A DNA stretch of 32,000 nt from NCBI RefSeq assembly GCF_000146505.1, contig NC_017448.1, forward strand, positions 630,001-662,000, in the 5' to 3' direction. Position 1 is the stretch's first letter. The number at the start of each line of letters is the position of its first letter. Below, piece after piece: positions 1-21,177 of this stretch. The position numbers and the translations under genes are program-made. This DNA is from Fibrobacter succinogenes subsp. succinogenes S85 (lineage in GTDB: Bacteria; Fibrobacterota; Fibrobacteria; Fibrobacterales; Fibrobacteraceae). Under the pieces are notes generated by a model. The model made no database searches. It was not told where the DNA came from and was given only the letters and a program-made list of their open reading frames with translations.

Positions 1-255
1 TTTTGTTTCGGTTTTACGCTCCTAGGCAAAAACACCTTTTACCCCTCCCACTTGCACCCCGCCACAGAACTGTACGTCATTTTGTCCGGACACGCCATCT
101 GGACATTAGACGGGATCTCAAAAGTACGCAGTCCTGGTGAATTTGTACTGCACCCGTCCAATCACATTCACTCCATGCAAACCGAACACGAACCCATGCT
201 CGCGCTCTACACGTGGAGCGGTAAAGACGTCAAAACGCTTTCAAAATATGTGTAA
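1..255 (+). CDS. Cupin-fold protein, C-terminal part (5' end off window); DMSP-lyase-like (DddQ-type) cupin signature
   Basis: Frame 1 is open from nt 1; the listed ORF 52..255 starts at an internal TTG. The translation ..FYPSHLHPATELYVILSG..HPSNHIHS carries the cupin metal motifs (H-x-H-x3-E plus a downstream His). Stop TAA at 253-255. Confidence 0.6.
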   Translation, partial: FCFGFTLLGKNTFYPSHLHPATELYVILSGHAIWTLDGISKVRSPGEFVLHPSNHIHSMQTEHEPMLALYTWSGKDVKTLSKYV

Positions 256-378
256 AAAAATTACACTTTTTCTTAGCGCTAGATATCAAAATTTTCAATA
301 ACACTTTTGATAATTTCTTTTTGTACATTGCTTTACGAGATGGAGAACAAGTCAAACCCATAACAAAAAGGATACAAC

Positions 379-930
379 ATGTACTCTACTCACTATATGG
401 ATCTGCTGATGCAGAATTCTCCCTGGAACCTGATTCTCTTCATGGCAATCCCCGTCATTCTCGCAGAGACCATCGCCATCACGGAATTGTTCCTGCTCAA
501 ATCGCCAAATGCGCACCCGACACTCTCCAAAGTGAATCGCACCGCGGGGATTCTTGCAGGGTTCGCATTCTTTGGAATCATAATCTATTTCATTCCGAAC
601 GTCATTATACCGCTAGCATCTGCTGGTGAATTCAGAACATGGATTGACGTCGTAGCCATATTCTCTTATATCCTTGCGGGCATTCCGATGATATTGCTTG
701 CACTTTTGAACTTGAAACTTTTATTCCGCAAAGTTGTTGAGCAGAAAAAAACGACATACGCTATTCTTCTACTCGCCGCATTTCTCGTGCTTTCTCACAT
801 TGCCATGATCTTCGGGATGGTTGACCCGGGAATTGCAGGCTACAAGCCCAAGGCGAAGGCAGTTTCCGAGGTTCAACCCCCTGCACACCACATGGATTCA
901 ATGCACGAAGGTCACCACTATCACCATTGA
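379..930 (+). CDS. Small polytopic membrane protein with His-rich C-terminal tail, function unknown
   Basis: 183 aa with about 4-5 hydrophobic segments. The soluble tail ends in PPAHHMDSMHEGHHYHH. It is followed by a stem-loop terminator at 981..1003. The overlapping ORF 321..629 looks like noise. Confidence 0.6.
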   Translation: MYSTHYMDLLMQNSPWNLILFMAIPVILAETIAITELFLLKSPNAHPTLSKVNRTAGILAGFAFFGIIIYFIPNVIIPLASAGEFRTWIDVVAIFSYILAGIPMILLALLNLKLLFRKVVEQKKTTYAILLLAAFLVLSHIAMIFGMVDPGIAGYKPKAKAVSEVQPPAHHMDSMHEGHHYHH

Positions 931-980
931 GCATTCAATTTCTTGAATAACGCCCCTACAAGCCATAGCTTTTTTGTATT

Positions 981-1003
981 AGCCAAGCATTAACTTGGCT
1001 TTT
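981..1003 (+). terminator. Rho-independent terminator
   Basis: AGCCAAG-cattaa-CTTGGCT 7-bp stem followed by TTTaTaTTT. Confidence 0.5.
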
Positions 1004-1049
1004 ATATTTGTCACCAAAATTCAACAAGTTCAATGACGGTAGTTTAAGA

Positions 1050-2039
1050 ATGACAATTACAGATTATTTGACGAAAGATTGGGACGAAAGCAAAACCCTT
1101 ACCCGCGAAGAATGTTTGCAAATTTTAAATTTTCCGGATAATCAACTTGACTTGCTAATTGAAGCAGCATTCAAATTACGCACGAAATACAAAGGCAACC
1201 GTGTCAACATCCAGCTTTTGACGAATGTCCGTAGCGGCAACTGCACTCAAAATTGCGCCTATTGCGCCCAATCTCGCGATTCCCAAGCGCCCATTGAAAA
1301 ATACAAAAGCGTTTCGGACGACAAGCTCTACGGCGATAATAATCTTGTTGATGAATTTCACCTGTCTCGGCATTGCATCGGGCTTTCGGGCATGGGTTTC
1401 ACAGACAAAGAAATTGAAGAACTCGCCGAACGCATTGCGCACATGAAGAAATCGGGGACGCACATTTGTTGTTCCATCGGATTCTTGACCGAGCACCAAG
1501 CCCGCATTTTAAAGGCGGCAGGCCTTGACCGCATCAACCACAACCTGAATACGAGCCGCCGTTTTTACCCCGAAATTTGCAGCACCCACACATACGAGCG
1601 ACGCATCCAAAACATTCGCATGTTGCAGAGCATCGGCTTTGAAATATGCTGTGGCGGAATCATTGGCATGGGCGAATCAAAAGAAGACGTGGTCGATATG
1701 CTTTTTGACTTGGTCGCCATCCATCCAGAATCCGTCCCCATAAACTTTTTGTTGCCGGTCAAAGGCACACGCCTCGCCAACCGCGACATTTCCGGGCTCA
1801 CATTCGAATACGGCATCAAAATTCTTTGCCTAGCCCGCTTGTTGCTCCCGAAATCGGACATCCGCTGCGCCGCCGGTCGCGAAATCTATTTCAAAGGACA
1901 CGAAAAGGAACTCTTCAAAGTCGCCGATTCCATTTTCGCTTCGGGTTACCTCACCGAAGGCGGTCAAAGCTTGGAAGCCACATTCCGCCAAATCGAAAAC
2001 GCAGGCTTCACGTGGGCTATAGAAAGCAAAGACGAATAA
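1050..2039 (+). CDS. bioB: Biotin synthase-like radical SAM enzyme (BioB family)
   Basis: CxxxCxxC radical SAM motif CTQNCAYCAQS. BioB-like blocks NHNLNTS, EICCGGIIGMGE, PESVPINFLLPVKGT and RCAAGRE match the E. coli BioB Fe-S ligand positions. ATG 1050 is preferred over TTG 1008, which abuts the upstream terminator. Confidence 0.8.
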   Translation: MTITDYLTKDWDESKTLTREECLQILNFPDNQLDLLIEAAFKLRTKYKGNRVNIQLLTNVRSGNCTQNCAYCAQSRDSQAPIEKYKSVSDDKLYGDNNLVDEFHLSRHCIGLSGMGFTDKEIEELAERIAHMKKSGTHICCSIGFLTEHQARILKAAGLDRINHNLNTSRRFYPEICSTHTYERRIQNIRMLQSIGFEICCGGIIGMGESKEDVVDMLFDLVAIHPESVPINFLLPVKGTRLANRDISGLTFEYGIKILCLARLLLPKSDIRCAAGREIYFKGHEKELFKVADSIFASGYLTEGGQSLEATFRQIENAGFTWAIESKDE

Positions 2040-2058
2040 CCACTGAACAGGTCGCTTA

Positions 2059-2655
2059 GTGTCATTAGAAGTAGCACTTTCTCTTTTACTATACGCATTC
2101 GTCTCAGGAATTACACCGGGACCCGCGAACCTCTGTTCACTCTCAGTAGCGATGGGGAGCGGGAAAAGCGTCGCCATAAAGCAGTGGTACGGACTTTTCA
2201 CCGGATACACAATCGTCTCGCTAGTATCTGTTTTTATAGTTTATTTTATCAGTAGTGCTTTTGAAAATTTCATCCGGGTATTTGCTTTCGTCGGAGCAAT
2301 TTACATTGCATATTTGGCAATCAGCCTTTTAATTCAAGCGTTCAAGCCACTCGAAGAAATCCGCAACAGCCGCACAACCGGTAGCTTCAGCACAGGTCTT
2401 TTCGTGCAACTCACGAACGTTAAAATCATGGTGTTCTGCCTCACGGCAATCACAACCTACATCCTCCCCTACCACCAAGATTTTCCGCACCTGCTGCTGT
2501 TCGGCATACTATTGCCGCTTACAGGCCCCATCTGCAATTTGGCGTGGCTTTTCACAGGCGTTTTACTGCAAGGGCTTTTCAAAAAGCACCACAGAATATT
2601 CTATACACTTATGGGACTCTCGCTATTGTATTGCGCCATTGGGATTGTGAAATAG
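2059..2655 (+). CDS. LysE/RhtB-family amino-acid exporter
   Basis: 198 aa with about 6 TM segments. The N-terminal ..GITPGPANL.. signature is typical of LysE/RhtB translocators. GTG start. Confidence 0.7.
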   Translation: MSLEVALSLLLYAFVSGITPGPANLCSLSVAMGSGKSVAIKQWYGLFTGYTIVSLVSVFIVYFISSAFENFIRVFAFVGAIYIAYLAISLLIQAFKPLEEIRNSRTTGSFSTGLFVQLTNVKIMVFCLTAITTYILPYHQDFPHLLLFGILLPLTGPICNLAWLFTGVLLQGLFKKHHRIFYTLMGLSLLYCAIGIVK

Positions 2656-2741
2656 TAGTCTGATATAGCATTTTCTTTTTGAAGTAACAAATTATTGGGA
2701 ATAAAATATTACTATCATTCTCAATAAGAAGGAATTTCACT

Positions 2742-3767
2742 ATGAATCTGCATTTTTTCAAGACAGTTTTTGCAGTGGCGCTGGTGGCGGGCGCGGGTTG
2801 TTTTTTCGGTTGCTCTTCGGAGAAGGCTCCCGAGGTTGAGAACAACACGCTTGTCAATGTGTCTTACGATCCGACGCGTGAGTTCTATTCCAATTACAAT
2901 CATATTTTTATGAAGCATTGGAAAGAGGCTACCGGCAAGGATGTGAAAATTACGCAGTTTCATGGCGGTTCGGGCAAGCAGGCGCTTGAGGTGGTGAACG
3001 GGCTTGAAGCGGATGTGGTCACGCTCGCGCTGGAATACGACGTGAACATTGTCCGTGACGCAGGGCTTATTGAAAACGGCTGGGTCAAGGAATTTCCACG
3101 CAACAGCGCTCCTTACACTTCGACGATTGTGTTTCTCGTGCGCAAGGGGAATCCCAAGAAAATCAGTGACTGGAACGATCTCGTGAAGGACGGCATCGGC
3201 ATCATCACGCCAGATCCCAAAACTTCGGGCGGTGCGCGCTGGAATTATCTTGCGGCTTGGGCTTATGCAGAAAAGCAGTTCAACGGAGATGAGGAGCAAG
3301 TCAAAGGTTTCATGAAGAAGCTTTATCAAAATGTTCTTGACCTCGCTTCGGGCGCACGCGGTTCAACAAATACATTCATAGAAGAACGCAAGGGCGATGT
3401 GCTGCTTTCTTGGGAAAACGAGGCATTCCTTTCGCTCAAGGACTACCCCAAGGATTACGAAATCGTGATGCCGAGTGTGAGCGTTTTGGCAGAGCCTTCT
3501 GTCGCGATTGTAGATAAGATTGTAGACAAACGCAACACGCGCAAACTTGCGACGGAATACCTGAATTATCTATACTCTGACGAAGCGCAGCATGTTGCGG
3601 CAAGGCATCATTACCGTCCGACAAACAAGGCGATTCTTGACGAGTACAAAGAATTTGACCAGAATGTCAATCTGATTACGATTGAGCATTTTGGCGGTTG
3701 GGAAAATGCACAGAAGACGCACTTTTCCGAGTATGGGATTTTCGACCAGATTTACGAGAAAAATTAA
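2742..3767 (+). CDS. sbp: Sulfate/thiosulfate ABC transporter substrate-binding lipoprotein (Sbp/CysP type)
   Basis: 341 aa. Signal peptide with lipobox FFGC. The blocks SYDPTREFY, HGGSGKQA, TPDPKTSGGARWNYLAAW and NEAFL are characteristic of sulfate-binding proteins. No cysTWA permease or ATPase genes are adjacent. Confidence 0.85.
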   Translation: MNLHFFKTVFAVALVAGAGCFFGCSSEKAPEVENNTLVNVSYDPTREFYSNYNHIFMKHWKEATGKDVKITQFHGGSGKQALEVVNGLEADVVTLALEYDVNIVRDAGLIENGWVKEFPRNSAPYTSTIVFLVRKGNPKKISDWNDLVKDGIGIITPDPKTSGGARWNYLAAWAYAEKQFNGDEEQVKGFMKKLYQNVLDLASGARGSTNTFIEERKGDVLLSWENEAFLSLKDYPKDYEIVMPSVSVLAEPSVAIVDKIVDKRNTRKLATEYLNYLYSDEAQHVAARHHYRPTNKAILDEYKEFDQNVNLITIEHFGGWENAQKTHFSEYGIFDQIYEKN

Positions 3768-3865
3768 GCATTTCAAAGCGCAAATAAAGTAACAAAATCC
3801 TAGTTATAGAAGCACCTCGTTCAATAGCTGAGCGAGTTTTTTATAGCAACCCAAAACCTCTTTCC

Positions 3866-3933
3866 TATAGAAAATACCTATTAAAAGCCATATAAAATTA
3901 GTATTGGACAATTACACATTTGCGTTCTATATT
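3866..3933 (+). promoter_or_regulatory. Conserved promoter/operator module, copy 1 (upstream of metY)
   Basis: TATAGAA (3866-3872), then ATAAAATTAGTATTGGACAA, then TTCTATATT (3925-3933). TGGACA and TATATT are 17 nt apart, which is sigma70-like. The same module with the same 59-nt TATAGAA/TTCTATA offset recurs at 5235 and 8331. The downstream leader ends in GTACGGAGA before the start codon. Confidence 0.5.
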
Positions 3934-3973
3934 TACCCACAAAATTTATAGGATTATGTACGGAGAATGTTGA

Positions 3974-5203
3974 ATGGATTTTAATACGACTTTATTGCAT
4001 CATAATTTTGAAAGTGAACGAAGTACCGGCTCTACGCTTACCCCTATTTATCAAGTCAGTGCATTTTCGCAAGAATCCGCAGAGAAACTCGAAGCTGTTT
4101 TTAACAATAGGGCTCCGGGTTTTGCATATACGCGCATTGGAAACCCCACGACAGATTCTTTCGAAAGGCGCATTGCATCTCTTGAAAAGGGCATTGGCGC
4201 CATAGCCTGCTCGTCGGGCATGGCTGCCGTGACGATGTCGCTCTTGAACATTTTGCAGTCCGGCGACGAAGTTATTGCAAGTACGGCATTGTTTGGCGGC
4301 ACGATCGACTTGTTCCACGATTTGGAAGCATTCGGCATTAAAACCCGTTACGTCACAGAAGTTACCGCTGAGAGCGTTCGTTCACAATTGAGCGATAAGA
4401 CCAAGGCAGTTTTTACAGAACTTATCGGCAACCCGAAACTCAATGTCGTTGATATTCAAAGCGTTGCAGATGTCGCACACGAAGCAGGCGTCCCGCTGAT
4501 TGTCGACAGCACGACGGCAACTCCTTACCTTGTTCATCCTTTTGATTTTGGCGCAGATATCGTTGTCCATTCCTCTTCCAAGTACATCAATGGAAACGGC
4601 AGTGCCATCAGCGGCATCATCGTCGATAGCGGAAAATTCAAGTGGGATTACACCAAATACAAGGGCTTGGAAGAATACAAGCGCTTTAGCAAGTTTGCGT
4701 ACCTCGCAAAGCTCCGCAACGGAGTCTGGCGCAACATTGGTTGTTGTCTCGCACCCGCTACCGCATTCCTCAACTCGCTCGGGCTTGAAACTCTCGGGCT
4801 CCGCATGGAACGCCTTTGCGATAACGCTTTGCAGCTCGCTGAATTTTTGCAGGGTTTCGAAGGCATCAAGGTCAACTACCCCGCATTGAAGGGCAATCCC
4901 TATTACGATCTCGTTCAAAAGCAGTTTAACGGCAAGGGCGGCGCCATCATCTCGATTGACGCAGGCTCCAAAGAAAAGGCTTTCAAGCTCATCAACAACT
5001 TGAAATACGCTACAATAGCCACGAACATTGGCGACTTGCGCACACTCGTCATCCACCCGGATAGCACGATTTTCACGCACAGTACCAAACTGCAAAAAGA
5101 AAACGCAGGCGTGTTCGAAGGTTCCATCCGCATCAGCGTAGGCATTGAAGATATTGCCGATCTCAAGGAAGATTTCGAACAAGCTATAAAGCAGATTTCG
5201 TAG
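3974..5203 (+). CDS. metY: O-acetylhomoserine sulfhydrylase (Cys/Met-metabolism PLP enzyme, MetY type)
   Basis: 409 aa. Blocks PIYQVSAF, YTRIGNPT, LFGGT and GADIVVHSSSKYINGNG (PLP lysine). IVDSGKFKW is typical of OAH/OAS sulfhydrylases. Confidence 0.85.
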   Translation: MDFNTTLLHHNFESERSTGSTLTPIYQVSAFSQESAEKLEAVFNNRAPGFAYTRIGNPTTDSFERRIASLEKGIGAIACSSGMAAVTMSLLNILQSGDEVIASTALFGGTIDLFHDLEAFGIKTRYVTEVTAESVRSQLSDKTKAVFTELIGNPKLNVVDIQSVADVAHEAGVPLIVDSTTATPYLVHPFDFGADIVVHSSSKYINGNGSAISGIIVDSGKFKWDYTKYKGLEEYKRFSKFAYLAKLRNGVWRNIGCCLAPATAFLNSLGLETLGLRMERLCDNALQLAEFLQGFEGIKVNYPALKGNPYYDLVQKQFNGKGGAIISIDAGSKEKAFKLINNLKYATIATNIGDLRTLVIHPDSTIFTHSTKLQKENAGVFEGSIRISVGIEDIADLKEDFEQAIKQIS

Positions 5204-5234
5204 CTATTAACCATTGACTAATAACTAACGACCA

Positions 5235-5302
5235 TATAGAAAATTTCAATAACTCAGCATAAAAATTAAGTATTGGACAAGTTAAAAAACGCGTTCTATA
5301 TT
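5235..5302 (+). promoter_or_regulatory. Conserved promoter/operator module, copy 2 (upstream of tusA-like gene)
   Basis: TATAGAA 5235-5241, TTGGACA 5273-5279, TTCTATATT 5294-5302. Nearly identical to copy 3 across about 70 nt. The leader ends in GTACGGAGA before ATG 5334. Confidence 0.5.
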
Positions 5303-5333
5303 TAGCATCAAAATTAAAGTACGGAGATAAAAA

Positions 5334-5582
5334 ATGTCAGAAGAAATTAAAGTAGACGATACCGTCGACGTCACCGATGTCAAATGCCCCACTACATTTG
5401 TCAAGGCTAAAGTCGCTATCGAAGAACTTGACGAAGGTCAGATTCTCGCAATCCGCCTGAACGACGGCGAACCGGTGCAGAATGTGCCGCGCAGCCTCAA
5501 GGAAGAAGGTCACGAAATCCTCAAGCTCAACGACAATCAGGACGGAACCTTTACACTCTTTGTGAAAAAAGTCGGGGACTAA
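5334..5582 (+). CDS. tusA: TusA/SirA-family sulfurtransferase
   Basis: 82 aa. Conserved D-V-x-C-P active-site cysteine motif (DVKCPTTFVKAK). The size and pattern fit the TusA family. Confidence 0.8.
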   Translation: MSEEIKVDDTVDVTDVKCPTTFVKAKVAIEELDEGQILAIRLNDGEPVQNVPRSLKEEGHEILKLNDNQDGTFTLFVKKVGD

Positions 5583-5594
5583 CCCCAAAAGGCG

Positions 5595-5615
5595 ATCCCG
5601 GAATAAATCCGGGAT
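5595..5615 (+). other. Perfect 8-bp stem-loop between tusA and the carrier gene (no T-run)
   Basis: ATCCCGGA-ataaa-TCCGGGAT, followed by GACAG and no U-tract, so not an obvious terminator. It shares a GGATGACAG word with 22702-22710. Confidence 0.5.
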
Positions 5616-5654
5616 GACAGCGAAAACAATTTAAACAAAAAAGGAATTTCAAAC

Positions 5655-5861
5655 ATGATTATTACCGTAGTTGGAAACAAGAAAGAAGTTAAAGACGGCC
5701 TCACCGTCGCAGAACTCATTGAACAAGAAAAGGTAGAAACGCCGCAGTACGTGACCGTTTCCGTGAACGATGAATTTGTCGAAAACGGAAATTTCGCAAC
5801 TACCGCCCTCAAGGACGGCGACAACGTCGAATTCCTCTACTTCATGGGAGGTGGTCAGTAA
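5655..5861 (+). CDS. ThiS/MoaD-family ubiquitin-like sulfur-carrier protein with one residue (Gln) after the diglycine
   Basis: 68 aa with a ThiS-like pattern (..LKDGDNVEFLYFMGGGQ*). The stop TAA overlaps the ATG of the E1 gene (TAATG at 5859-5863). Confidence 0.8.
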   Translation: MIITVVGNKKEVKDGLTVAELIEQEKVETPQYVTVSVNDEFVENGNFATTALKDGDNVEFLYFMGGGQ

Positions 5862-6670
5862 TGGCTTTTACTAACGAACAACTCGAACGCTATTCCCGCC
5901 ACATCATCCTCAAGGAAGTGGGTGCAAAGGGCCAGAAGAAGCTTTTGAACGCCAAGGTGCTCGTCATTGGCGCAGGTGGCCTCGGTGCTCCTGTCGCTAT
6001 GTACCTCGCCGCCGCAGGCGTTGGCACCATTGGCATTGCCGATGCAGACGTCGTTGACCTTTCCAATTTGCAGCGCCAGATTATCCATGCTACAAAGGAC
6101 GTGGGTAAGCCCAAGGTGCAGTCCGCCAAGGAAACGATGGAAGCGATGAACCCGGATGTCAAGGTGATTACGTATCACACGTTCGTCACTAGCGAAAACA
6201 TCATGGACCTCATCAAGGATTACGATTTTATCATTGACGGAACCGACAACTTTCCGGCAAAGTTCCTCATCAACGACGCTTGCGTCATGGCCAAGAAGCC
6301 GTTCTCTCACGCGGGCATTATCCGCTTCCAGGGGCAGCTCATGACGTACGTTCCGGGTCAAGGTCCGTGCTACCGCTGTGTTTTCAAGGAACCCCCTCCG
6401 AAAGATGCCGTGCCGACTTGCAAACAGGCAGGCGTGATCGGCGCTATGGGCGGTGTAATCGGTAGCCTCCAGGCGATGGAAGCCATCAAGTACATTCTCG
6501 GTGTCGGCAATCTGCTCACGGGCTACTTGCTCACCTACAATGCGCTCACGATGGAATTCCGCAAGATCAAGCTCCCGACGCATACGAAAGATTGCGCAGT
6601 CTGCGGTGACCACCCGACGATTGACCATCTGATCGACTACGAACAAGCCGTCTGTGAGATGAAGCACTAA
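5861..6670 (+). CDS. ThiF/MoeB/HesA-family E1-like adenylyltransferase (no rhodanese domain)
   Basis: 269 aa. YSRHIIL, the nucleotide loop VIGAGGLGAP, DxDxVxxSNLQRQ, and two CxxC pairs (CYRC, CAVC). Confidence 0.85.
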   Translation: MAFTNEQLERYSRHIILKEVGAKGQKKLLNAKVLVIGAGGLGAPVAMYLAAAGVGTIGIADADVVDLSNLQRQIIHATKDVGKPKVQSAKETMEAMNPDVKVITYHTFVTSENIMDLIKDYDFIIDGTDNFPAKFLINDACVMAKKPFSHAGIIRFQGQLMTYVPGQGPCYRCVFKEPPPKDAVPTCKQAGVIGAMGGVIGSLQAMEAIKYILGVGNLLTGYLLTYNALTMEFRKIKLPTHTKDCAVCGDHPTIDHLIDYEQAVCEMKH

Positions 6671-6679
6671 GGAATTTCA

Positions 6680-7090
6680 ATGATTACAATTTCAAAAGAT
6701 GATTATCAAAAAATCCTGGAGCATGCCCAGAAGAACCTCCCCGAAGAGGCTTGCGGGCTGATAGCCGGGAAAATTGAGGGGAACGACAAGCACATTGAAA
6801 AGGTCTATTTGCTCACGAACATAGACCATTCCAATGAGCACTTTTCGCTTGACCCCAAGGAACACTTAGCCGCCATCAAGGATATGCGCCAAAACGGCCT
6901 ATCCCCGCTTGGTAACTGGCATTCCCACCCCGAGTCCCCGTCGCGCCCGTCGCAAGAAGACAAGCGCCTCGCTTTCGACAGCAAGGCTAGCTACTTGATT
7001 CTTTCGCTGATGGATCGTGAAAATCCGGTGCTCAATTCGTTCCATATCGAAGGCGACAATGCCACGAACGAAGGCTTGGTAATCGGGTAA
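6680..7090 (+). CDS. JAMM/MPN+ metallopeptidase (Mec+/HcyD/CysO-hydrolase type), paralogue 1
   Basis: 136 aa. Upstream catalytic Glu (EEACG) and a complete JAMM motif HSHPESPSRPSQED (H-x-H-x7-S-x2-D). Confidence 0.85.
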   Translation: MITISKDDYQKILEHAQKNLPEEACGLIAGKIEGNDKHIEKVYLLTNIDHSNEHFSLDPKEHLAAIKDMRQNGLSPLGNWHSHPESPSRPSQEDKRLAFDSKASYLILSLMDRENPVLNSFHIEGDNATNEGLVIG

Positions 7091-7107
7091 AGGTCTCCGT
7101 ACAAACG

Positions 7108-7154
7108 GCGCCCCTGGGATCCTTCTGAAATTCCGATTCCGGGGGCGCTTTTTT
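7108..7154 (+). terminator. Terminator-like stem-loop between the two JAMM genes
   Basis: GCGCCCC (7108-7114) pairs with GGGGCGC (7142-7148) around a long loop. TTTTTT follows at 7149-7154. Confidence 0.4.
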
Positions 7155-7169
7155 ATAGGGGAAATTTTA

Positions 7170-7550
7170 ATGATGGCCAAATATAGTAAAAACATTTATG
7201 AACAAATGGTTTTAGCAGCCAAAAAAGCATATCCGAACGAATGCTGTGGCATTTTGGTGGGTAAAAAGTCCGAACAGAGCGAAATCGAAGTGACCGAAAT
7301 TCGCGAAGCCGAGAACCAGTTTCAAGGGCAGAAAGCAGTCCACTTCAAAATAGACCCGCTATATCTTTACCACTTGGAGCAAGAACTTGATCCGCGCGGT
7401 CTTGAAATTGTCGGCATTTACCATTCACACCCCGACTGCCCCGCCATTCTCTCCAAAGAAGACGAAAAATACATGGTTCCTGGCCTCGAATACGTCATCA
7501 TGTCCGTGCAAAACGGCGAAGTCGTGGATGTGAAAAGCTATAGGAAATGA
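7170..7550 (+). CDS. JAMM/MPN+ metallopeptidase, paralogue 2
   Basis: 126 aa. NECCG Glu motif and JAMM motif HSHPDCPAILSKED (H-x-H-x7-S-x2-D). Confidence 0.8.
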   Translation: MMAKYSKNIYEQMVLAAKKAYPNECCGILVGKKSEQSEIEVTEIREAENQFQGQKAVHFKIDPLYLYHLEQELDPRGLEIVGIYHSHPDCPAILSKEDEKYMVPGLEYVIMSVQNGEVVDVKSYRK

Positions 7551-7565
7551 GTTTAGAGTTTCTGT

Positions 7566-7583
7566 TGTAAAAATATTTTTACA
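7566..7583. repeat. Perfect 18-bp palindrome TGTAAAAATATTTTTACA
   Basis: Read directly: the two 9-nt halves are exact reverse complements. It lies just after JAMM2 and upstream of the toxin-antitoxin pair. Confidence 0.8.
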
Positions 7584-7761
7584 TCATTCTTGCTAACGGT
7601 AGATTGCAAAATTTAAGCAGTTTCCGTTTTTCGTGATTATCGTTTGTAGATTTACCTCAAACATAAAAATGAGGTCTAAAAGGATAATGTCTAGCAACAC
7701 CAAAGTTCACACTCAAGGGAAAAAATATATTTTAATGGAGTCTGTTTTTCCGGAGGCTTTT

Positions 7762-7989
7762 ATGACATATTCTGAAATTGAAGAAAAAATCAGAAAAGTG
7801 CCTGAGGAATATCTTGCCATCATCGACGCCTTTATCGACGGATTGATGATTCAGCATCAAATGAAAAAGAAACCATCCGATGAATTAACCGCCGCCATCA
7901 AAGAAAGCGAAGCCATGCTCAACGATCCGAACGCAAAGAAGTTCGATTCCGTAGATGCTCTATTTGCTGATCTTGATGCGGAGGAATAG
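7762..7989 (+). CDS. Type II antitoxin (RelB/DinJ-like partner of YafQ)
   Basis: ATG 7762 is preceded by GGAGG (7752-7756). The product is a 75-aa acidic protein ending ..KKFDSVDALFADLDAEE. Its stop TAG is immediately followed by the toxin ATG. The listed start 7633 lacks an RBS and adds an implausible N-terminus. Confidence 0.6.
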   Translation: MTYSEIEEKIRKVPEEYLAIIDAFIDGLMIQHQMKKKPSDELTAAIKESEAMLNDPNAKKFDSVDALFADLDAEE

Positions 7990-8265
7990 ATGGCATATCA
8001 AATCGAATACACCTCTCGTTTCAAGAAAGAATACAAATTGGCAAAAAAGAGGGGACGCGACATAAATTTGTTGCGAACCGTCATTGAGATTCTTGCAAAA
8101 GGCGAGCCTCTCCCAGAAAAATACAAGGACCATCCACTGGTATCTAATTGGAGCGGATATCGCGAATGCCATATTCAAAGCGATTGGTTGCTGATTTACA
8201 AGTACAAGGACAATGAACTCATTTTGAGTTTAACAGCAACAGGCTCACATAGCGATTTATTCTAA
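7990..8265 (+). CDS. yafQ: YafQ/RelE-family type II toxin (mRNA interferase)
   Basis: 91 aa. FKKEYKLAKKRG, PLPEKYKDHPL.G, WSGYRECHI.DWLLIY, and a terminal H..L(F) pattern typical of YafQ toxins. Confidence 0.8.
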   Translation: MAYQIEYTSRFKKEYKLAKKRGRDINLLRTVIEILAKGEPLPEKYKDHPLVSNWSGYRECHIQSDWLLIYKYKDNELILSLTATGSHSDLF

Positions 8266-8273
8266 AACATTTA

Positions 8274-8298
8274 GGGCAGCCCAAAGCTGTCCGTTTTT
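8274..8298 (+). terminator. Rho-independent terminator after the TA pair
   Basis: GGGCAGC-ccaaa-GCTGTCC (one G-U pair) followed by gTTTTT. Confidence 0.55.
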
Positions 8299-8330
8299 GT
8301 AATAACCTACGATAACTAAAAGCCTTCAGT

Positions 8331-8398
8331 TATAGAAAAAATCAATAAGTTCGCATAAAAATTAAGTATTGGACAAACGCGTTTTTACGTTCTATATT
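8331..8398 (+). promoter_or_regulatory. Conserved promoter/operator module, copy 3 (upstream of Ubl-E1-rhodanese gene)
   Basis: TATAGAA 8331-8337, TTGGACA 8369-8375, TTCTATATT 8390-8398. A longer leader carries GTACGGA twice (8439, 8461) before GTG 8475. Confidence 0.5.
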
Positions 8399-8474
8399 TC
8401 AGCACGAAAAAATCCTATAGCTATTGTGGGAAAATTTGTACGGAACAACCACTTTTTAATGTACGGAGAAAAAA

Positions 8475-9953
8475 GTGAGAATTTATATATCAGCAACCCT
8501 TAGGAATTTCTTCGGGAAAAACGCGCAAGTCAGCGTCCCCGAAAACACGGTTAGAAAGGCTCTCGCCAATTTAATAAGTACTTATCCAGAAGGAGAAAAA
8601 GTCCTTTTTGATGAAAACAACAAGCTCAGAAGTTTCATCAAGATCTACCTCAATGGCAAGAATTTGAACGTCGATACACTCTGGGACGCCACACTTGAAG
8701 ACGATTCCGAAATTTTGCTTTTGCCCGCCATCGCAGGCGGCGCACCGATTGAAGAATCGCAAAGCAAACACGTCGAAAGCTTGATTTCTGACGAAAGACG
8801 CAAGGAAGTCGCTTTTGACGATAGCGAAATTGAACGCTTCGGCAAGCACCTGATGCTCAAAGACATCGGCGTCAAGGGCCAAAAGCGCATCAAGGCCGCA
8901 AAAGTCGTCGTCATTGGCGTTGGCGCACTCGGCTCTCCGGTGATCCAGTATCTCGCCGCCGCAGGCGTTGGCACCATCAAGGCCATCGACTTCGACGAAG
9001 TCTCGCTCGAAAACTTGCAAAGCCAGGTATTGCACGGCACACGCGACGTCAAGCGTCCGAAGGTCGCCTCAGCAAAGGACAAAGTCAAAAACATCAACAA
9101 GAATATCGTCTTTGAAGCCGTCAAGGAACAGCTCGACGCATCGAACATCGAAGCCGAAATTGAAGGCTACGATCTCGTTATTGACTGCACGGACAACTAC
9201 AAGGCTCGCTACCTGATCAACGACGCTTGCGCTCTGCACGGCATTCCGCTTGTGTTCGGCGCGATTTACCAGTTCGAAGGCCAAGTCGGCATTTTCAACT
9301 TGGATGGCGGTCCATGCTTGCGTTGCCAATACCCATCCCCTCCGCCGGCAGGGCTCATCCCCTCCTGCGCAGAAGGCGGCGCCATCAGCCCGCTCCCGGG
9401 AATCATCGGCAGCATCCAGGCAAACGAAGCGCTCAAGCTCATCTTGGGAATCGGTGAACACCTGAACGGCAAAATTCTCCACGTGGATAGTTTGTACTTA
9501 TCTTCGAGAATTTTCAAGGTCGAACGCGATTGCCATTGCCCGATTTGCGGTAACAATCCGACAATCACAAACGTCGAAGATATCGACTACGAAGACCTTT
9601 GCGGATTGAAGACCACAAACGAAACGCCTGTGGAAGGATTCACGCCCGAAGAACTCGCCAAGCGCATCGACAACGGCGACGACATCACAATTGTTGACGT
9701 CCGCGAGCCGCACGAACGCGCGATTTTGCGTTTCCCGAACGCCATCGTGATTCCAATCGGACAGCTCGTTCGCAGACAAAAGGAACTCGATCCAAATAAG
9801 GATACGATTTTCATTTGTAAACAAGGCAAGCGTAGCGAACTTGCCATCAACACATTGCGCGAAGCGGGCTACACCGGTCCTCTGTACAACTTAAAGGGCG
9901 GTATCGACGCAATGAAGGACATCATGTTCTCACACGAAGGCGCTTGGTTATAA
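8475..9953 (+). CDS. Triple fusion: MoaD/ThiS-like Ubl domain (internal GG), ThiF/MoeB E1 domain and rhodanese domain
   Basis: 492 aa. Residues 1-89 are beta-grasp-like and end LLLPAIAGG (GG codons 8736-8741). A linker follows, then the E1 domain (VIGVGALGSP, SLENLQSQ, CLRC and CPIC). The C-terminal rhodanese has the active-site loop FICKQGKRS (Cys codon 9816-9818). GTG start with RBS GGAG. Confidence 0.85.
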   Translation: MRIYISATLRNFFGKNAQVSVPENTVRKALANLISTYPEGEKVLFDENNKLRSFIKIYLNGKNLNVDTLWDATLEDDSEILLLPAIAGGAPIEESQSKHVESLISDERRKEVAFDDSEIERFGKHLMLKDIGVKGQKRIKAAKVVVIGVGALGSPVIQYLAAAGVGTIKAIDFDEVSLENLQSQVLHGTRDVKRPKVASAKDKVKNINKNIVFEAVKEQLDASNIEAEIEGYDLVIDCTDNYKARYLINDACALHGIPLVFGAIYQFEGQVGIFNLDGGPCLRCQYPSPPPAGLIPSCAEGGAISPLPGIIGSIQANEALKLILGIGEHLNGKILHVDSLYLSSRIFKVERDCHCPICGNNPTITNVEDIDYEDLCGLKTTNETPVEGFTPEELAKRIDNGDDITIVDVREPHERAILRFPNAIVIPIGQLVRRQKELDPNKDTIFICKQGKRSELAINTLREAGYTGPLYNLKGGIDAMKDIMFSHEGAWL

Positions 9954-10108
9954 CGTAGGGCTTTGAATAGGGAAAAGCTATGTCAAAAAAATTTTTCGAC
10001 AAGGGCAGATTTTCGTAACAACAAAATAAGCTTATTATTTTCTAACATTCACATCTAAATACTAGGAAAATAGTTTTAAACACAACTAACAATAAGAGGT
10101 AAACCATT

Positions 10109-11071
10109 ATGGCAAATGAAGCAGAAAAGAACACGGGCATTAATGCCCTCGGCGCCAAGGCCGCTTACAACCTGGCGAACGTCACCAAGACCAAGCCGCA
10201 ATTTGGCGCGCTCACGCCCAAGTGGCTCACCAAGTTCCTTGAATTCAAGGGTCTCGAAACAGGTCTTTTCCGCGTGAACAAGGTCGTCGAAGGCCAGACA
10301 CCGCTCGACGTTCTTTGCAGCGCTACCAAGAAGTCCGATATCATCCCGGAAGGCTACGTCGAATACGAAACCGAACCGCGCGAATACAAGCTCAACTCCA
10401 TCTCCACGATCATCAACGTCAACACCGCTATCGAAGACGTTTACAGCTCCCCGTATGATCAGGTTCAGGAACAGCTCGGTCTCGCTATCGAATCTCTCCG
10501 CGAACGTCAGGAAAGCCAGCTCATCAACAACGATGACTACGGTCTCTTGAAAAACATCGCTGACTCTCAGCGCATCCAGCCGCTCCGTGCCGATGGCCGC
10601 CCGACTCCGGACGATCTCGATGAACTCATTTCGAAGGTTTGGAAGGAACCGTCCTTCTTCCTCGCCCACCCGCGTGCTATTGCCGCATTCGCCCGTGAAT
10701 GCACCCGCCGTGGCGTGCCGCCTGTCGTTGTAGACCTCGCCGGTAGCAGATTCCTCACCTGGCGCGGCATTCCTCTCGTTCCGACCGACAAGCTCCTTGT
10801 CGATGGCGTGAAGAACCCGAAGTCTCAGGGTGGCAAGACCAACATCTTGCTCGTCCGTACTGGCGAAGCCAAGCGCGGCGTTATCGGTCTCTTCCAGGCC
10901 GGTCTCAAGAACGAACACTCCCGTGGCCTCTCTGTGCGTTTCCGCGGTATCGACAACAAGGGCGTTGCATCTTACCTCTTGTCTCTGTACTGCTCTGCCG
11001 CAATTCTCGCAGACGACGCTATCGCCGTGTTAGAAGATGTCGAGGTTGGCGAATACTATGACTACGAATAA
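10109..11071 (+). CDS. Family 2A encapsulin shell protein (SrpI-like, no cNMP-binding insertion)
   Basis: 320 aa. Long conserved blocks recalled from SrpI-type encapsulins: WKEPSFFLAHPRAIAAFARECTRRGVPP, TWRGIPLVPTDK, LSVRFRGI, ASYLLSLYCS. RBS AAGAGG. It sits directly upstream of a desulfurase with a disordered N-terminus. Confidence 0.8.
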   Translation: MANEAEKNTGINALGAKAAYNLANVTKTKPQFGALTPKWLTKFLEFKGLETGLFRVNKVVEGQTPLDVLCSATKKSDIIPEGYVEYETEPREYKLNSISTIINVNTAIEDVYSSPYDQVQEQLGLAIESLRERQESQLINNDDYGLLKNIADSQRIQPLRADGRPTPDDLDELISKVWKEPSFFLAHPRAIAAFARECTRRGVPPVVVDLAGSRFLTWRGIPLVPTDKLLVDGVKNPKSQGGKTNILLVRTGEAKRGVIGLFQAGLKNEHSRGLSVRFRGIDNKGVASYLLSLYCSAAILADDAIAVLEDVEVGEYYDYE

Positions 11072-12800
11072 TCCAGAAACCAGATCGCTGGAAGAACTCG
11101 CCGGAGTTCCCAATGCGGCTGAACTGGAGCAATTGGCAAATGCGTATTTCCCGGATTTGACGGATAGCGCATACGCAGCAACCCCCGCCGCTCCCGAAGC
11201 GCAGAACGCATCTGCCGCTCAGGGAGTCAGTGCAGCTCAGGGTGCCGCAGCCATCAGCCAGACTCCAGCCTTCGACTGGGAACACCCCTTTGCGACCTAT
11301 GGCGACCAGCCGACATCCTCGGCTCCGTTTGCCTATGGCGGAAGTTCTACAGACACCTGGCTCAACACGGTTGAAGCCCCTGCGGTTCCCGAATCGCAGT
11401 TTGCATCGCAGCTGAGCGATATTCCGACAGCCCCCGCACCGGCTCAGGGTTACTCCCCGAAGGTCGTGTCCAAGACGCAGGCTGCCGAAGCTAGCCGCCA
11501 GATCGATGCACCGACTTCTCTCGGTGGCGATTCCGTGAAGACGGGTTCTGCAAACAGCGGCGCAAATTCTCGCAACGATTCCATCCGCATCGGTTCCAAG
11601 ACTCTTGCCCAGATCCGTTCTGACTTCCCGATTCTCTCGAAGCAGATCAACGGTCATCCGCTCGTTTGGCTCGATAACGGTGCAACAACGCAGCGCCCGC
11701 AGGTAGTCATTGACCGCCTCAAGTACTACTACGAAAACGAAAACTCCAACGTTCACCGTGGCGCTCACACGCTCGCGGCCGCATCGACAGACGCCTACGA
11801 AAACGCACGCAACATCGTTCGTGACTTTATCGGCGCTCCGTCCTCGCAGGAAGTTGTTTTCGTTCGCGGTACAACAGAAGCCATTAACTTGGTTGCAAAT
11901 GCCTACGTGAAGCCGACGCTCCAGCCGGGTGACGAAATCATCGTCTCCATTTTGGAACACCACGCCAACATCGTTCCGTGGCAGCTCATTGCCGAAGAAA
12001 CGGGCGCAATCATCAAGGTGATTCCGTGCGATTCTACCGGTCAGCTCAAGCTCCACGATTACGAAGCATTGTTCACGAAGCGTACCAAGTTCGTTTCCGT
12101 GACGCACGTTTCGAACGTGCTCGGCACTGTAACCCCGATTGAAGAACTCATCGCCATCGCTCATAGACACGGCGTGAGAATCCTCATTGACGGCGCTCAG
12201 TCCATCGCTCACATCCCGGTAAACGTTGCAGCCCTCGATGCAGACTTCTTCGTGTTCTCTGGACACAAGGTGTTTGCTCCGACCGGTATCGGCGTTGTCT
12301 ATGGCAAGAAGGAATTGCTTGAAGCAGCAAGACCTTACCATGGCGGCGGCAACATGATTGCGGACGTCACGTTCGAACGCACGATTTACAACGGAATTCC
12401 GAACAAGTTCGAAGCTGGTACCGGAAGCATCGCCGACGCTGTTGGCCTCGGTGCAGCCCTCCAGTACCTCACTGAAATCGGGATGCCGTGCGTATTCCGC
12501 TGGGAACATGAACTGTTGCAGTACGGCCTCAAGGAATTGAAGACTGTCAAGGGTATCCACCTTGTGGGAACCGCACTCAACAAGGCTTCTGCGCTTGCCT
12601 TCAAGCTCGACGGTTATTCCGACGAAGAAGTGGGCAAGAGACTCGACGCATACGGCGTTGCCGTTCGCACCGGGCATCACTGCGCTCAGCCAGTTCTCCG
12701 CCATTTCGGCTACGAAAGTACCGTGCGACCCACACTCGCATTGTACAACTCACCGGATGACATCGACGCCCTCGTAAGAGCGTTGAAGACATTCGCATAG
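11058..12800 (+). CDS. Group II (SufS/CsdA-type) cysteine desulfurase with about 185-aa disordered N-terminal extension (encapsulin cargo type)
   Basis: The catalytic part starts near 11613 (IRSDFPILS..LDNGATTQ). PLP lysine in FSGHKVFAPTG and active-site RTGHHCAQP. The N-terminus is Ala/Pro/Ser/Gln-rich and contains LEQLANAYFP (11124-11153). ATG 11058 (GAGG 12 nt upstream) overlaps the encapsulin 3' end by 14 nt. ATG 11037 is an alternative start. Confidence 0.85.
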   Translation: MTTNNPETRSLEELAGVPNAAELEQLANAYFPDLTDSAYAATPAAPEAQNASAAQGVSAAQGAAAISQTPAFDWEHPFATYGDQPTSSAPFAYGGSSTDTWLNTVEAPAVPESQFASQLSDIPTAPAPAQGYSPKVVSKTQAAEASRQIDAPTSLGGDSVKTGSANSGANSRNDSIRIGSKTLAQIRSDFPILSKQINGHPLVWLDNGATTQRPQVVIDRLKYYYENENSNVHRGAHTLAAASTDAYENARNIVRDFIGAPSSQEVVFVRGTTEAINLVANAYVKPTLQPGDEIIVSILEHHANIVPWQLIAEETGAIIKVIPCDSTGQLKLHDYEALFTKRTKFVSVTHVSNVLGTVTPIEELIAIAHRHGVRILIDGAQSIAHIPVNVAALDADFFVFSGHKVFAPTGIGVVYGKKELLEAARPYHGGGNMIADVTFERTIYNGIPNKFEAGTGSIADAVGLGAALQYLTEIGMPCVFRWEHELLQYGLKELKTVKGIHLVGTALNKASALAFKLDGYSDEEVGKRLDAYGVAVRTGHHCAQPVLRHFGYESTVRPTLALYNSPDDIDALVRALKTFA

Positions 12801-12801
12801 C

Positions 12802-12914
12802 AGGTCGCGTCCTTCGGACGCTTTGAGCGATGAGGTCGCACCTGCGGTGCTTTGGGGTTCTGAGCTATAGCCCATACCTCAGAGGGAGCCGCAGGCGACC
12901 GACCCCATACCTCA
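12802..12914. repeat. Cluster of short hairpin/direct repeats in the desulfurase-cysE spacer
   Basis: AGGTCGC followed by a hairpin occurs twice: GCGTCC-ttc-GGACGC at 12807-12821 and GCACC-tgc-GGTGC at 12838-12850. An inverted GGCGACC lies at 12894-12900. CCCATACCTCA occurs twice (12871-12881 and 12904-12914). Confidence 0.6.
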
Positions 12915-12948
12915 TACCTTATCATTACTTCTTATTTTTCAAAAATCT

Positions 12949-13911
12949 ATGCACGAACTTATCCAAGAATCTGAAGTTGAAAAAGCCGTACAAATTATTT
13001 TTGACGATTACAATCGCGGCAAGCATATCGACAATATCGATATTTACAATCGACCCGACCAGGCCGAAATCCAGACAATTTTGCAGAATCTGATTCGAGT
13101 CGTTTATCCTGGACACTTCAGAGATCGTTCGCATAAGATTTACAATCCCAAGAACAGCTTTGCAGTTCTTATCGAAGATACGTTCTACCACCTTCACAAG
13201 CAGGTGGCGATTGCGCTAGATTACTGCAAATTGCGCGGTTCCATGACCTCGGACGAGCGCAAAATTGAAAGCTATAGAATTTGTAAGGAATTCTTCGCCA
13301 AGATTCCGCAAATCCGCGAATTCCTGGAAACCGATTTACACGCCGCTTTTGACGGCGACCCTGCTGCCGGCTGCCTTGACGAGATTATCCTCGCCTACCC
13401 CGGTCTCATGGCGACAACCATTTACCGCATCGCCCACGAACTTTATCTTTTACACGTTCCGGTTCTCCCGCGACTCATGACCGAATATGCCCATTCCAAA
13501 ACAGGCATCGACATCCATCCGGGTGCAACCATCGGCAAATACTTCTTTATCGATCACGGCACAGGCATTGTGATTGGCGAAACCGCAGTCATCGGCAAGA
13601 ACGTCAAGATTTACCAAGGCGTCACGCTAGGCGCACTTTCAACTCGCGGCGGACAAAAGCTCTCCGGCAAAAAGCGCCACCCCACCATTCAAGACAACGT
13701 CACTATTTACGCGGGAGCATCCATTCTCGGCGGAGATACCGTTGTTGGCGAAAACGCAATTATCGGCGGCAACGCCTTCATCACGCGATCCATTGAGGCC
13801 AACACTCGCGTCAGCCTCAAGAATCTTGAAATGGATTACGTTTCAACCACCAATAGCAAGCACAAGACCGAAGAACTCCAGCAAAGCGACGAGTGGTACT
13901 ATATTATTTAG
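12949..13911 (+). CDS. cysE: Serine O-acetyltransferase (long-form CysE/EpsC type)
   Basis: 320 aa. Left-handed beta-helix hexapeptide repeats (GIDIHPGATIGKYFFIDHGTGIVIGETAVIGKNVKIYQGVTLG) and the SAT N-terminal helical domain. Confidence 0.85.
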   Translation: MHELIQESEVEKAVQIIFDDYNRGKHIDNIDIYNRPDQAEIQTILQNLIRVVYPGHFRDRSHKIYNPKNSFAVLIEDTFYHLHKQVAIALDYCKLRGSMTSDERKIESYRICKEFFAKIPQIREFLETDLHAAFDGDPAAGCLDEIILAYPGLMATTIYRIAHELYLLHVPVLPRLMTEYAHSKTGIDIHPGATIGKYFFIDHGTGIVIGETAVIGKNVKIYQGVTLGALSTRGGQKLSGKKRHPTIQDNVTIYAGASILGGDTVVGENAIIGGNAFITRSIEANTRVSLKNLEMDYVSTTNSKHKTEELQQSDEWYYII

Positions 13912-13972
13912 CAGGAAGTAGGCGGTAGGAAGTAGGAAGTGGTTAGTAAACAGTGGTTAGTAGGAAGTAAAA
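13912..13972. repeat. Low-complexity purine/T word repeats (AGGAAGT, GTGGTTAGTA)
   Basis: caGGAAGTAGGcGGTAGGAAGTAGGAAGTGGTTAGTAaacaGTGGTTAGTAGGAAGTaaaa, read directly. Confidence 0.7.
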
Positions 13973-13977
13973 AGGAC

Positions 13978-14007
13978 AAAACCCGCACTCGGACGAGCAC
14001 GGGTTTT
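13978..14007. terminator. Bidirectional terminator between convergent cysE and pectate lyase genes
   Basis: AAAACCCG (13978-13985) pairs with CGGGTTTT (14000-14007). This gives an A-run/T-run hairpin usable on both strands. Confidence 0.55.
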
Positions 14008-19619: not shown

Positions 19620-19644
19620 CTTTCAAGAAATTGCGATTACAAGT

Positions 19645-19672
19645 AAAGCCTATCCTCCGAGATAGGCTTTTT
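19645..19672 (+). terminator. Rho-independent terminator after trpCF
   Basis: AAAGCCTATC-ctccga-GATAGGCTTT followed by TT. Confidence 0.7.
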
Positions 19673-19725
19673 CAATACCGCACCAAAATCGTACCAAAAA
19701 TTTACAAAAAAGTTATCGTAACCTA

Positions 19726-19890
19726 TTGACAATCAACGACTTACATTATATATTGATATACGTAAAGGTGAAATCGGTAATCCACTCAGACCGCTTGCGG
19801 GAGGGGTTCCCGTAAAACGGAACGGATTTGCTGGTTTCATCAAGTGTTTGATTCAATGGCTTCCGGAATGTGCCGGAAGCCTATTTTTTT
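19726..19890 (+). promoter_or_regulatory. Promoter plus leader/terminator element paralogous to the trpBA attenuator but without Trp codons
   Basis: TTGACA (19726-19731), 17 nt, TATATT (19749-19754). Mini-ORF GTG 19768..TAA 19815 encodes MKSVIHSDRLREGFP. The 16-nt block TTTCATCAAGTGTTTG (19835-19850) is identical to 22561-22576. Terminator GGCTTCCGG-aatgtg-CCGGAAGCC plus T7 at 19858-19890. Confidence 0.45.
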
Positions 19891-21136: not shown

Positions 21137-21177
21137 AGCCAACCCTTACCTCAAAAAATTCAACACTATAGCAAAAT

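Follow-up and report, generated by a model that had tools for sequence, protein, structure and literature searches.

A conserved promoter module with LysR-type features marks sulfur-assimilation genes in Fibrobacter

LysR-type transcriptional regulators (LTTRs) bind 15-bp inverted repeats, for example ATAG-n7-CTAT in the case of OxyR, which are centred at -66, -44 and -35 (PMC5002191). The streptococcal methionine LTTR CmhR/MtaR binds TATAGTTTSAAACTATA (PMC5359408), and the operator of CmbR is GYGATAAAAAWWAYTTATMAC (PMC5131005). Fibrobacter is a major cellulose degrader of the rumen whose transcriptional regulation is almost undescribed, and a literature search found no publication on Fibrobacter promoters or sulfur regulation. 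Here we analyzed a 32,000-nt stretch of the Fibrobacter succinogenes subsp. succinogenes S85 genome (contig NC_017448.1, positions 630,001 to 662,000; hereafter the window, numbered from its first letter), in which a ~70-nt promoter module occurs three times, upstream of metY, of tusA and of a gene encoding a Ubl-E1-rhodanese fusion. The module is well supported as the signal of a sulfur regulon and has the layout of an LTTR-controlled promoter, which would be a conventional mechanism in an unstudied phylum.

TATAGAA, GTATTGGACA, a 17-nt spacer and GTTCTATATTT recur in all three modules at exactly the same relative positions. Throughout, the first T of TATAGAA is module position 1, and transcription is assumed to start near position 75. 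Each module contains two inverted repeats (IR1 and IR2) followed by a -35 and a -10 hexamer, arranged as follows:

3866..3935, + strand: module 1, upstream of metY (start 3974), with IR1 at 3866-3882 (TATAGAAAATACCTATT), IR2 at 3890-3904 (ATAT-N7-GTAT), the -35 TGGACA at 3905-3910 and the -10 TATATT at 3928-3933
5235..5304, + strand: module 2, upstream of tusA-thiS-thiF-JAB (start 5334), with IR1 at 5235-5251, IR2 at 5259-5273 (ATAA-N7-GTAT), the -35 at 5274-5279 and the -10 at 5297-5302
8331..8400, + strand: module 3, upstream of the Ubl-E1-rhodanese gene (start 8475) and of the encapsulin, cysteine desulfurase and cysE-like genes that come after it, with IR1 at 8331-8347, IR2 at 8355-8369, the -35 at 8370-8375 and the -10 at 8393-8398

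A 33-nt pattern drawn from this architecture, TATTGGACAA-N11-CGTTCTATATTT, has three exact matches in the window against 0.00 expected from 100 shuffles, and TATAGAA by itself is found 13 times where 1.6 occurrences are expected. An earlier annotation of the window, made by reading the sequence alone (the first-pass annotation), had described three copies in which TATAGAA and its inverted counterpart TTCTATA start 59 nt apart and TGGACA and TATATT are separated by 17 nt. All three are present on the + strand, at 3866, 5235 and 8331, with TTCTATA starting at 3925, 5294 and 8390, so that both distances are seen in 3/3 copies. The statement that copies 2 and 3 are nearly identical was too strong, since they are equal at 53/69 positions while copy 1 is equal to each of them at 50/69 (72–77% overall). 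Of the extra TTATAG words reported around the modules, the one at 3804 is correct, two are at 3841 and 3946, each one position away from where they had been placed, and the word at 8415 reads CTATAG.

We built a hidden Markov model (HMM) of the module from eight copies and searched the window and five Fibrobacter contigs with nhmmer. These comparison contigs (L001, L002, L005, L036 and L038) carry E1 or MetY orthologs, the MetY orthologs being 82–86% and the E1 orthologs 79–84% identical. Homology likewise puts the window in Fibrobacter, its E1 protein being 79% identical to E1 of Fibrobacter sp. UBA4309. The search returned 24 strong copies and one weak copy, all in register with zero insertions or deletions over ~75 nt, and it is this lack of indels that keeps the 59-nt offset constant. 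The genes downstream of the copies are sbp, cysTWA, metY, a small sulfite reductase gene, aprA-like/cysD/cysN, tusA-thiS-thiF-JAB, E1-srpI-CyD-cysE and DsrE-TusA-rhodanese, and in L001 eight copies lie within 21 kb. HMM scans found no module in the 22 kb of the window that lie outside the sulfur genes, nor in 39 kb of three loci centred on an LTTR gene (L041, L043 and L045). The sulfur regulon proposed by the first-pass annotation is thus borne out by in-register copies in six Fibrobacter lineages, every one of them upstream of sulfur genes. If the motif were a generic repeat, as that annotation had considered, it should also occur at unrelated sites, and there are no such sites in the ~200 kb of fragments scanned, though all of these fragments were reached via sulfur genes or the LTTR, a selection that limits this test of specificity. 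Because the copies precede sulfur genes and none was found elsewhere in the scanned sequence, the module reads as a genus-wide sulfur-assimilation signal and not as a generic repeat. The core of the first idea, that one promoter combined with one regulator site marks the Fibrobacter sulfur-assimilation regulon, holds on these sequence comparisons.

Pattern scans of two large public collections produced chance matches only. In a collection of genome contigs there was one match, within a Clostridia coding region, and in a collection of metagenome contigs there were 27 matches, 0 of which were confirmed by the module HMM; both collections apparently lack or mask this lineage. The locus L040, whose metY is 76% identical, has no module and carries a Firmicute-like TTGACA/TATAAT promoter instead, and is uninformative for footprinting.

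The sigma70-like promoter that had been proposed inside the module is supported by the promoter scores. TGGACA-17-TATATT scores 10/12 in 3/3 window copies, and the module promoters are the three best sigma70-like sites within bases 1-14000 of the window. The -35/-10 spacing is identical in the 24 copies, with the -35 reading T(T)GGAC(A) at positions 40-45, then a free 17-nt spacer, and the -10 reading TATATT(TG) at 63-70. In relatives this -10 reads TATATTTG, and the same word stands before unrelated genes, among them bioB (window 1003) and, in L002, Rrf2 and yggS. At ~19727 the window has a further promoter that fits the consensus, TTGACA-17-TATATT, which shows that the organism uses this promoter type, and together these sites give a first glimpse of a Fibrobacter promoter consensus, TTGACA-17-TATATTTG. 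The region upstream of bioB (941-1021) also gives a weak fourth match to the module in the window, at 62% identity and an nhmmer E of 0.8; its likeness to the module is limited to the -10 region TTTTATATTTG, a terminator-like hairpin (981-1000) falls within it, and it is probably just an ordinary promoter.

A fixed distance between invariant blocks that resemble a -35 and a -10, with a free spacer between them, is typical of regulons under an alternative sigma factor, and on this basis such a factor, dedicated to the regulon, could use GTATTGGAC as its -35 and GTTCTATATTT as its -10. We regard this as highly improbable: the -10 word TATATTTG serves unrelated promoters too, and a protein would still be needed to bind the conserved stretch between -75 and -50. 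A promoter of the extracytoplasmic function (ECF) type in particular was excluded by its wrong spacing and generic -10, as the usual ECF promoter spacing is 2–3 nt longer than that of GGAC-N13-CGTT.

The surroundings of the modules constrain where transcription can begin. Terminator-like hairpins lie ~30 nt 5′ of modules 1 and 3:

3816..3842, + strand: terminator-like hairpin and T run 3′ of the sbp gene, insulating module 1
8274..8298, + strand: terminator-like hairpin and T run 3′ of yafQ, insulating module 3 and arriving with a toxin-antitoxin insert

In three species the cysT start codon falls at module position 80, 11 nt past TATATT, so that transcription must start inside the module. These start codons (L001 2720, L005 4796 and L038 7129) have no Shine-Dalgarno (SD) sequence, and as read from them the cysT mRNA is leaderless or nearly leaderless.

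The same observations bear on whether the module might be a transcribed RNA element, such as an attenuator or riboswitch, or a dispersed repeat, in place of a promoter/operator. What speaks for an RNA element is that in 10/24 copies the spacer forms a terminator-like GC hairpin followed by UCUAUAUUU, but this hairpin is absent from the window copies, the terminators directly 5′ of modules 1 and 3 leave no space for another promoter, and the cysT start codon comes 11 nt past the -10. Conserved and randomised blocks alternate along the module, unlike in a recent repeat, and Rfam covariance models gave 0 matches at gathering thresholds across the whole window. An RNA element or repeat is, in our view, scarcely credible.

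The spacer hairpins themselves may have a different role. The -35/-10 spacer (positions 41-62) folds far more strongly in these ten copies than shuffled spacers do, for example at L001 15394, L001 5496, L002 7398, L036 7006, L038 9897 and L038 18110. The base of the stem is formed by GGAC and GUUC, while the inner arms vary between orthologs yet stay complementary (GCGGC/GCCGC, GGGGU/AUCCC and GCG/CGC). Copies with a hairpin mostly sit close behind a co-oriented gene; of the window copies, which have none, two have separate upstream terminators. We suggest that such a hairpin may be the terminator of the preceding gene, lodged in several species within the -35/-10 spacer of the promoter that follows. 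Such nesting would also explain the conserved GTTC just 5′ of the -10.

Each copy was compared position by position for the distribution of conservation. High-information positions are 1-4 (TATA), 7-11 (AAAAA), 15-18 (ATAA), 23-27 (GCATA), 36-44 (GTATTGGAC, which is invariant among copies) and 59-69 (GTTCTATATTT), whereas positions 5-6, 12-14, 19-22 and the entire spacer at 45-58, which is randomised, carry little information. This profile does not agree with the proposal of the first-pass annotation in which TATAGAA and TTCTATA make up a single operator, with one half-site on either side of the promoter. Among the 24 copies only TATA and A7 are fixed in the left heptamer, 9/24 copies differ at positions 5-6 (TATAGCA, TATAACA, TATAAAA, TATAGGA and TATAAGA), and changes at G5 are mirrored at C62 in 1/6 cases. 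For this reason the heptamers are not a co-evolving pair, whether as protein half-sites or as a stem, and a hairpin or RNA stem joining the two was dropped for the same lack of covariation. As for the right heptamer, its TATA belongs to the generic -10 TATATTTG that unrelated promoters also use.

In a related model, one repressor would recognise TATAGAA and TTCTATA, on either side of the promoter, as distal half-sites and, by looping or wrapping the DNA, occlude the -10. The heptamers are indeed exact, inverted and 59 nt apart in 3/3 window copies and in many relatives, the GTTC preceding the -10 is specific to the module, unlike the -10 word itself, and the copy at L002 7398 alters both heptamers in step, to TATAAAA and TTTTATA. 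We nevertheless consider this model quite unlikely. In addition to the variable left heptamer and the generic TATA of the right one, a distance of 59 bp corresponds to 5.6 helical turns, so that the two sites would not share a face of the helix, and the conserved blocks at 15-18 and 23-44 are left unaccounted for.

IR1 and IR2 cover these blocks in another way. IR1, TATAG-N7-C(G/T/A)ATA, is a 17-bp interrupted dyad at positions 1-17 with its centre at position 9, or about -66, while IR2, ATAA-N7-GTAT, occupies positions 25-39, has its centre at about -43 and abuts the -35 at 40-45. Since all four arms carry an ATA core, both are dyads of the T-N11-A form, and the left heptamer is better read as the left arm of IR1, a 17-bp dyad of putative LysR type. 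Decisive for the LTTR reading, in our judgement, are two promoters that have the geometry of the module base for base. In L005 the metE promoter, divergent from an LTTR gene at 19568-20497, has CATAG-N7-CTATG at 1-17, AGTATTTTAC at 35-44 and TATATTTG at 63-70. In L002 the promoter of a Ser_hydrolase gene, divergent from an LTTR gene at 16257-17189, has TATAGAAAAGTCCTATA at 1-17 and a TATTTTG -10 from 63, followed by the ribosome-binding site GTACGGAGG. Both align to the module almost gap-free, the sole gap column being a 1-nt insertion 3′ of the -10. This identical geometry would make the module a paralog of promoters that stand in the classical divergent LTTR arrangement.

Perfect boxes also occur outside the modules: TATAGAAAAGTCCTATA between the L002 LTTR gene and the Ser_hydrolase gene, CCATAGTTTAAATCTATGG between L005 metE and its divergent LTTR gene, and TATAGGAAAAGCCTATA upstream of a second metY in L005. 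In the window one further box stands alone and may be an extra LysR-type site:

9967..9981, no strand assigned: stand-alone ATAGGGAAAAGCTAT box (ATAG-N7-CTAT) between the E1 gene and srpI, not conserved among relatives

The corresponding E1-srpI intergenic region of relatives (L001 11560-11600, L002, L005 and L038) has no module and carries a conserved everted palindrome, TCCTAT-N7-ATAGGA, upstream of srpI. In the window this palindrome is degenerate (10040-10075), and the box at 9967-9981 is found there instead.

The first-pass annotation saw no regulator gene in the window, and a Pfam-based gene survey agrees in showing no transcription-factor gene there. The best candidate for the regulator is the ortholog of the L002 LTTR (16257-17189). 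This type of LTTR is 78–97% conserved in Fibrobacteraceae, has ATAG-N7-CTAT boxes nearby and always lies beside sulfur-amino-acid genes, these being cystathionine-lyase and PALP genes, cysteine desulfurase and metNIQ genes, or an Rrf2 gene. The candidate is below every NCBIfam equivalog cut-off, and NCBIfam and the PDB name it no further than 'LysR family'; against CysB structures in the PDB it scores E ~1e-11 over residues 1-205. A different LysR gene, located at L002 6483-7373 directly 5′ of tusA, was set aside because it lies within a mobile/restriction-gene insertion that the other loci lack.

In the reading that we prefer and hold to be rather probable, an LTTR tetramer would bind IR1 and IR2 together and control a housekeeping promoter by sulfur status. 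IR1 would then be the probable high-affinity recognition site, and IR2, next to the -35, the probable activation site. Sulfur status could be reported by a ligand, either an inducer of the O-acetylserine/O-acetylhomoserine type or an anti-inducer such as sulfide or thiosulfate, and the liganded LTTR would recruit or reposition RNA polymerase. The sequence comparisons establish the anatomy of the module, its conservation, the genes of its regulon and the matching geometry of promoters that face a divergent LTTR gene; the binding of an LTTR, the choice of LTTR, its ligand and the sign of control are what we infer.

Several observations weigh against this reading. There is no HTH_1/LysR gene in the window, and none consistently adjoins the modules. 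The right arm of IR1 is mostly CGATA, TGATA or CAATA, with CTAT in ~5/24 copies. The invariance of GTATTGGAC far exceeds what is usual for a weak activation site, the module-specific GTTC 5′ of the -10 is left unexplained by an LTTR, and a -35 and -10 this near to consensus typify repressed promoters more than those that depend on an activator. The first of these points is softened by the family itself, in which an adjacent LTTR gene is common and not obligatory, the CysB regulons having none. The near-consensus hexamers, the invariant GTATTGGAC and the unexplained GTTC leave room for a second factor, or for the repressor on distal half-sites described above.

The second factor could be accommodated if the LTTR bound IR1 while another protein, either a CmbR-like LTTR paralog or a cysteine repressor of the Rrf2/CymR type, bound the invariant GCATAAAAATTAAGTATTGGAC. 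IR1 resembles the CmhR/MtaR box and the centre of the module resembles the CmbR operator, these genomes contain at least two LTTR paralogs (44% identical), and in L002 and L041 an Rrf2 gene with below-threshold similarity to CymR and IscR adjoins the LTTR gene; near-consensus hexamers would also suit repression. However, four half-sites with one ATA core and one spacing are consistent with a single protein, the Rrf2 protein is nearer to IscR than to CymR and falls under both family cut-offs, and the metE promoter retains AGTATT in place despite having an IR1 of the other class. Two regulators are in our estimation unlikely, and we keep to a single LTTR on both dyads as the preferred reading.

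Regulation may extend to translation, because the regulon genes have a ribosome-binding word of their own, and its complement is found at the end of one of the operons:

3958..3966, + strand: GTACGGAGA, the regulon-specific SD context of metY
5319..5327, + strand: GTACGGAGA, the SD context of tusA
8438..8469, + strand: E1 leader with the word twice, as GTACGGAAC at 8438 and GTACGGAGA at 8461-8469
7094..7154, + strand: anti-SD element 3′ of the JAB1 stop codon, with TCTCCGTAC at 7094-7102, a 15-bp hairpin at ~7107-7149 and a T run

The first-pass annotation had noticed a common word before the start codons, and GTACGGAGA is found 5–7 nt upstream of 3974, 5334 and 8475. It is absent before ~20 other window genes, which carry AAGGAATTT- or GAGGTAA-type sites. 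Directly 3′ of the JAB1 stop codon, UCUCCGUAC (7094-7102) complements the regulon-specific GUACGGAGA without a mismatch. Homologs of this anti-SD unit are found at L001 ~9511, L002 ~9402, L005 ~9416 and, on the - strand, L036 17227-17300, which makes five copies including that of the window, and a covariance model of the unit finds one copy per locus. Among them the 9-mer is fixed while the 15-bp stem, followed by a U run, shows compensatory changes in 3 pairs; the L001 copy reads UUUCCGUAC, with pairing kept through G·U. In L036 the unit has another setting, where it follows an unknown gene upstream of an ABC permease gene. These features are suggestive only of a 3′-UTR small RNA targeting the ribosome-binding sites of the regulon, whose seed UCUCCGUAC would pair with the GUACGGAG ribosome-binding context of metY, tusA, E1, sulfite reductase and aprA. 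That such a candidate small RNA, derived from the 3′ end of tusA-thiS-thiF-JAB, adds a second layer of control beside the LTTR-type promoter layer is a proposal we make tentatively and consider rather doubtful; if true, it could provide feedback or cross-operon coordination of translation.

Elsewhere in the window, two paralogous units of ~160 nt on the + strand (19725-19890 and 22455-22614, 79% identical, one of them just 5′ of trpB) could represent a leader or small RNA not yet described. They have their own promoters (TTGACA-17-TATATT and TTGCCA-17-TACATT), a conserved GTTTGCTG.TTTCATCAAGTGTTTG block and an GGCTTCCGG/CCGGAAGCC terminator with a T run, of which a third, terminator-only copy lies at 21175-21210. 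The units have no Rfam match.

In the window the modules serve a sulfur island. By Pfam assignment it starts with a sulfate-type binding protein, MetY, TusA, ThiS, ThiF/MoeB and two JAB proteases, and continues past a toxin-antitoxin insert with the ThiS-ThiF-rhodanese fusion, the SrpI type 2A encapsulin shell, cysteine desulfurase and a hexapeptide acetyltransferase. MetY with its ThiS, ThiF and JAB partners recalls what we take to be the route described in Wolinella, in which homocysteine is made by way of a protein thiocarboxylate. There, MetY uses a thiocarboxylated carrier protein (PMC8191291). The toxin-antitoxin pair (window 7633-8265) consists of a 118-aa unknown protein and a YafQ toxin, separates the second JAB gene from module 3, carries a terminator of its own at 8274-8292, and is missing at that position in L001, L002, L005 and L038. 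The nearest non-Fibrobacter homologs of the Ubl-E1-rhodanese fusion (8475-9953) are 70–75% identical and come from rumen and gut Lachnospiraceae (Butyrivibrio and Pseudobutyrivibrio), and the candidate LTTR shares 72% identity with proteins of Treponema. These similarities of the E1 fusion and the LTTR suggest gene transfer between gut phyla.

The module provides a ready definition of a regulon that joins four functions under one signal: sulfate uptake and reduction, the protein-thiocarboxylate homocysteine route, the Ubl-E1-rhodanese fusion, and the encapsulin with SrpI and cysteine desulfurase. This suggests that the encapsulin system apparently belongs to the sulfur-limitation response in the phylum of Fibrobacter too. 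The module also supplies a testable candidate regulator and aids the annotation of Fibrobacter regulation. The conceptual surprise is modest, since the type of mechanism is textbook.

With regard to known systems, the candidate small RNA can be set beside CpxQ and SroC, which are 3′-UTR-derived base-pairing small RNAs with an anti-SD seed. The element at 7094-7154 likewise closes an operon with a terminator hairpin and a U run behind a conserved, single-stranded 9-mer, and this 9-mer is complementary to the ribosome-binding regions of its own regulon. The element could, however, be a mere terminator with a conserved flank.

CymR, an Rrf2-type regulator of Bacillus and Staphylococcus, resembles the present case in that a sulfur regulon is governed through an AT-rich operator overlapping promoters, and in L002 and L041 an Rrf2 gene is near the candidate LTTR gene. 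However, the Fibrobacter Rrf2 protein scores 90 bits where the CymR cut-off is 195, its IscR score is higher while it remains below both family cut-offs, and the module has no clear 27-bp CymR-like palindrome.

Canonical LTTR promoters of the OxyR, MetR, CysB and BenM class share more with the module. Both have T-N11-A dyads of ~15–17 bp, the dyads near -66 and -43 match the -66/-44 placing of this class together with its rigid promoter spacing, and the sister promoters of the module likewise face a divergent LTTR gene. The module differs from them in having no adjoining LTTR gene in the window, a degenerate right arm in IR1, an invariant -35-proximal block and an extra GTTC 5′ of the -10. Its regulon parallels the sulfur-assimilation control exerted by CysB, although the candidate Fibrobacter LTTR is not an ortholog of CysB.

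At the level of the individual boxes, IR1 shares its TATAG-N7-C.ATA arms with the CmhR/MtaR/MetR box. It does not fit the full MET box TATAGTTTSAAACTATA, as its centre is A-rich (AAAAAAY) where the box has TTTSAAA and its right arm is mostly CGATA, whereas the L005 metE box CATAGTTTAAATCTATG is almost identical and does fit. The centre of the module, CATAAAAATTAAGTATTGG, equals the CmbR/FhuR operator GYGATAAAAAWWAYTTATMAC at 13/19 positions in a hand alignment, a likeness at the level of operator sequence only. Like the module, the streptococcal CmhR and CmbR systems govern sulfur-amino-acid genes, in a different phylum, and in the Fibrobacter module boxes of both streptococcal types sit together in one fixed cassette.

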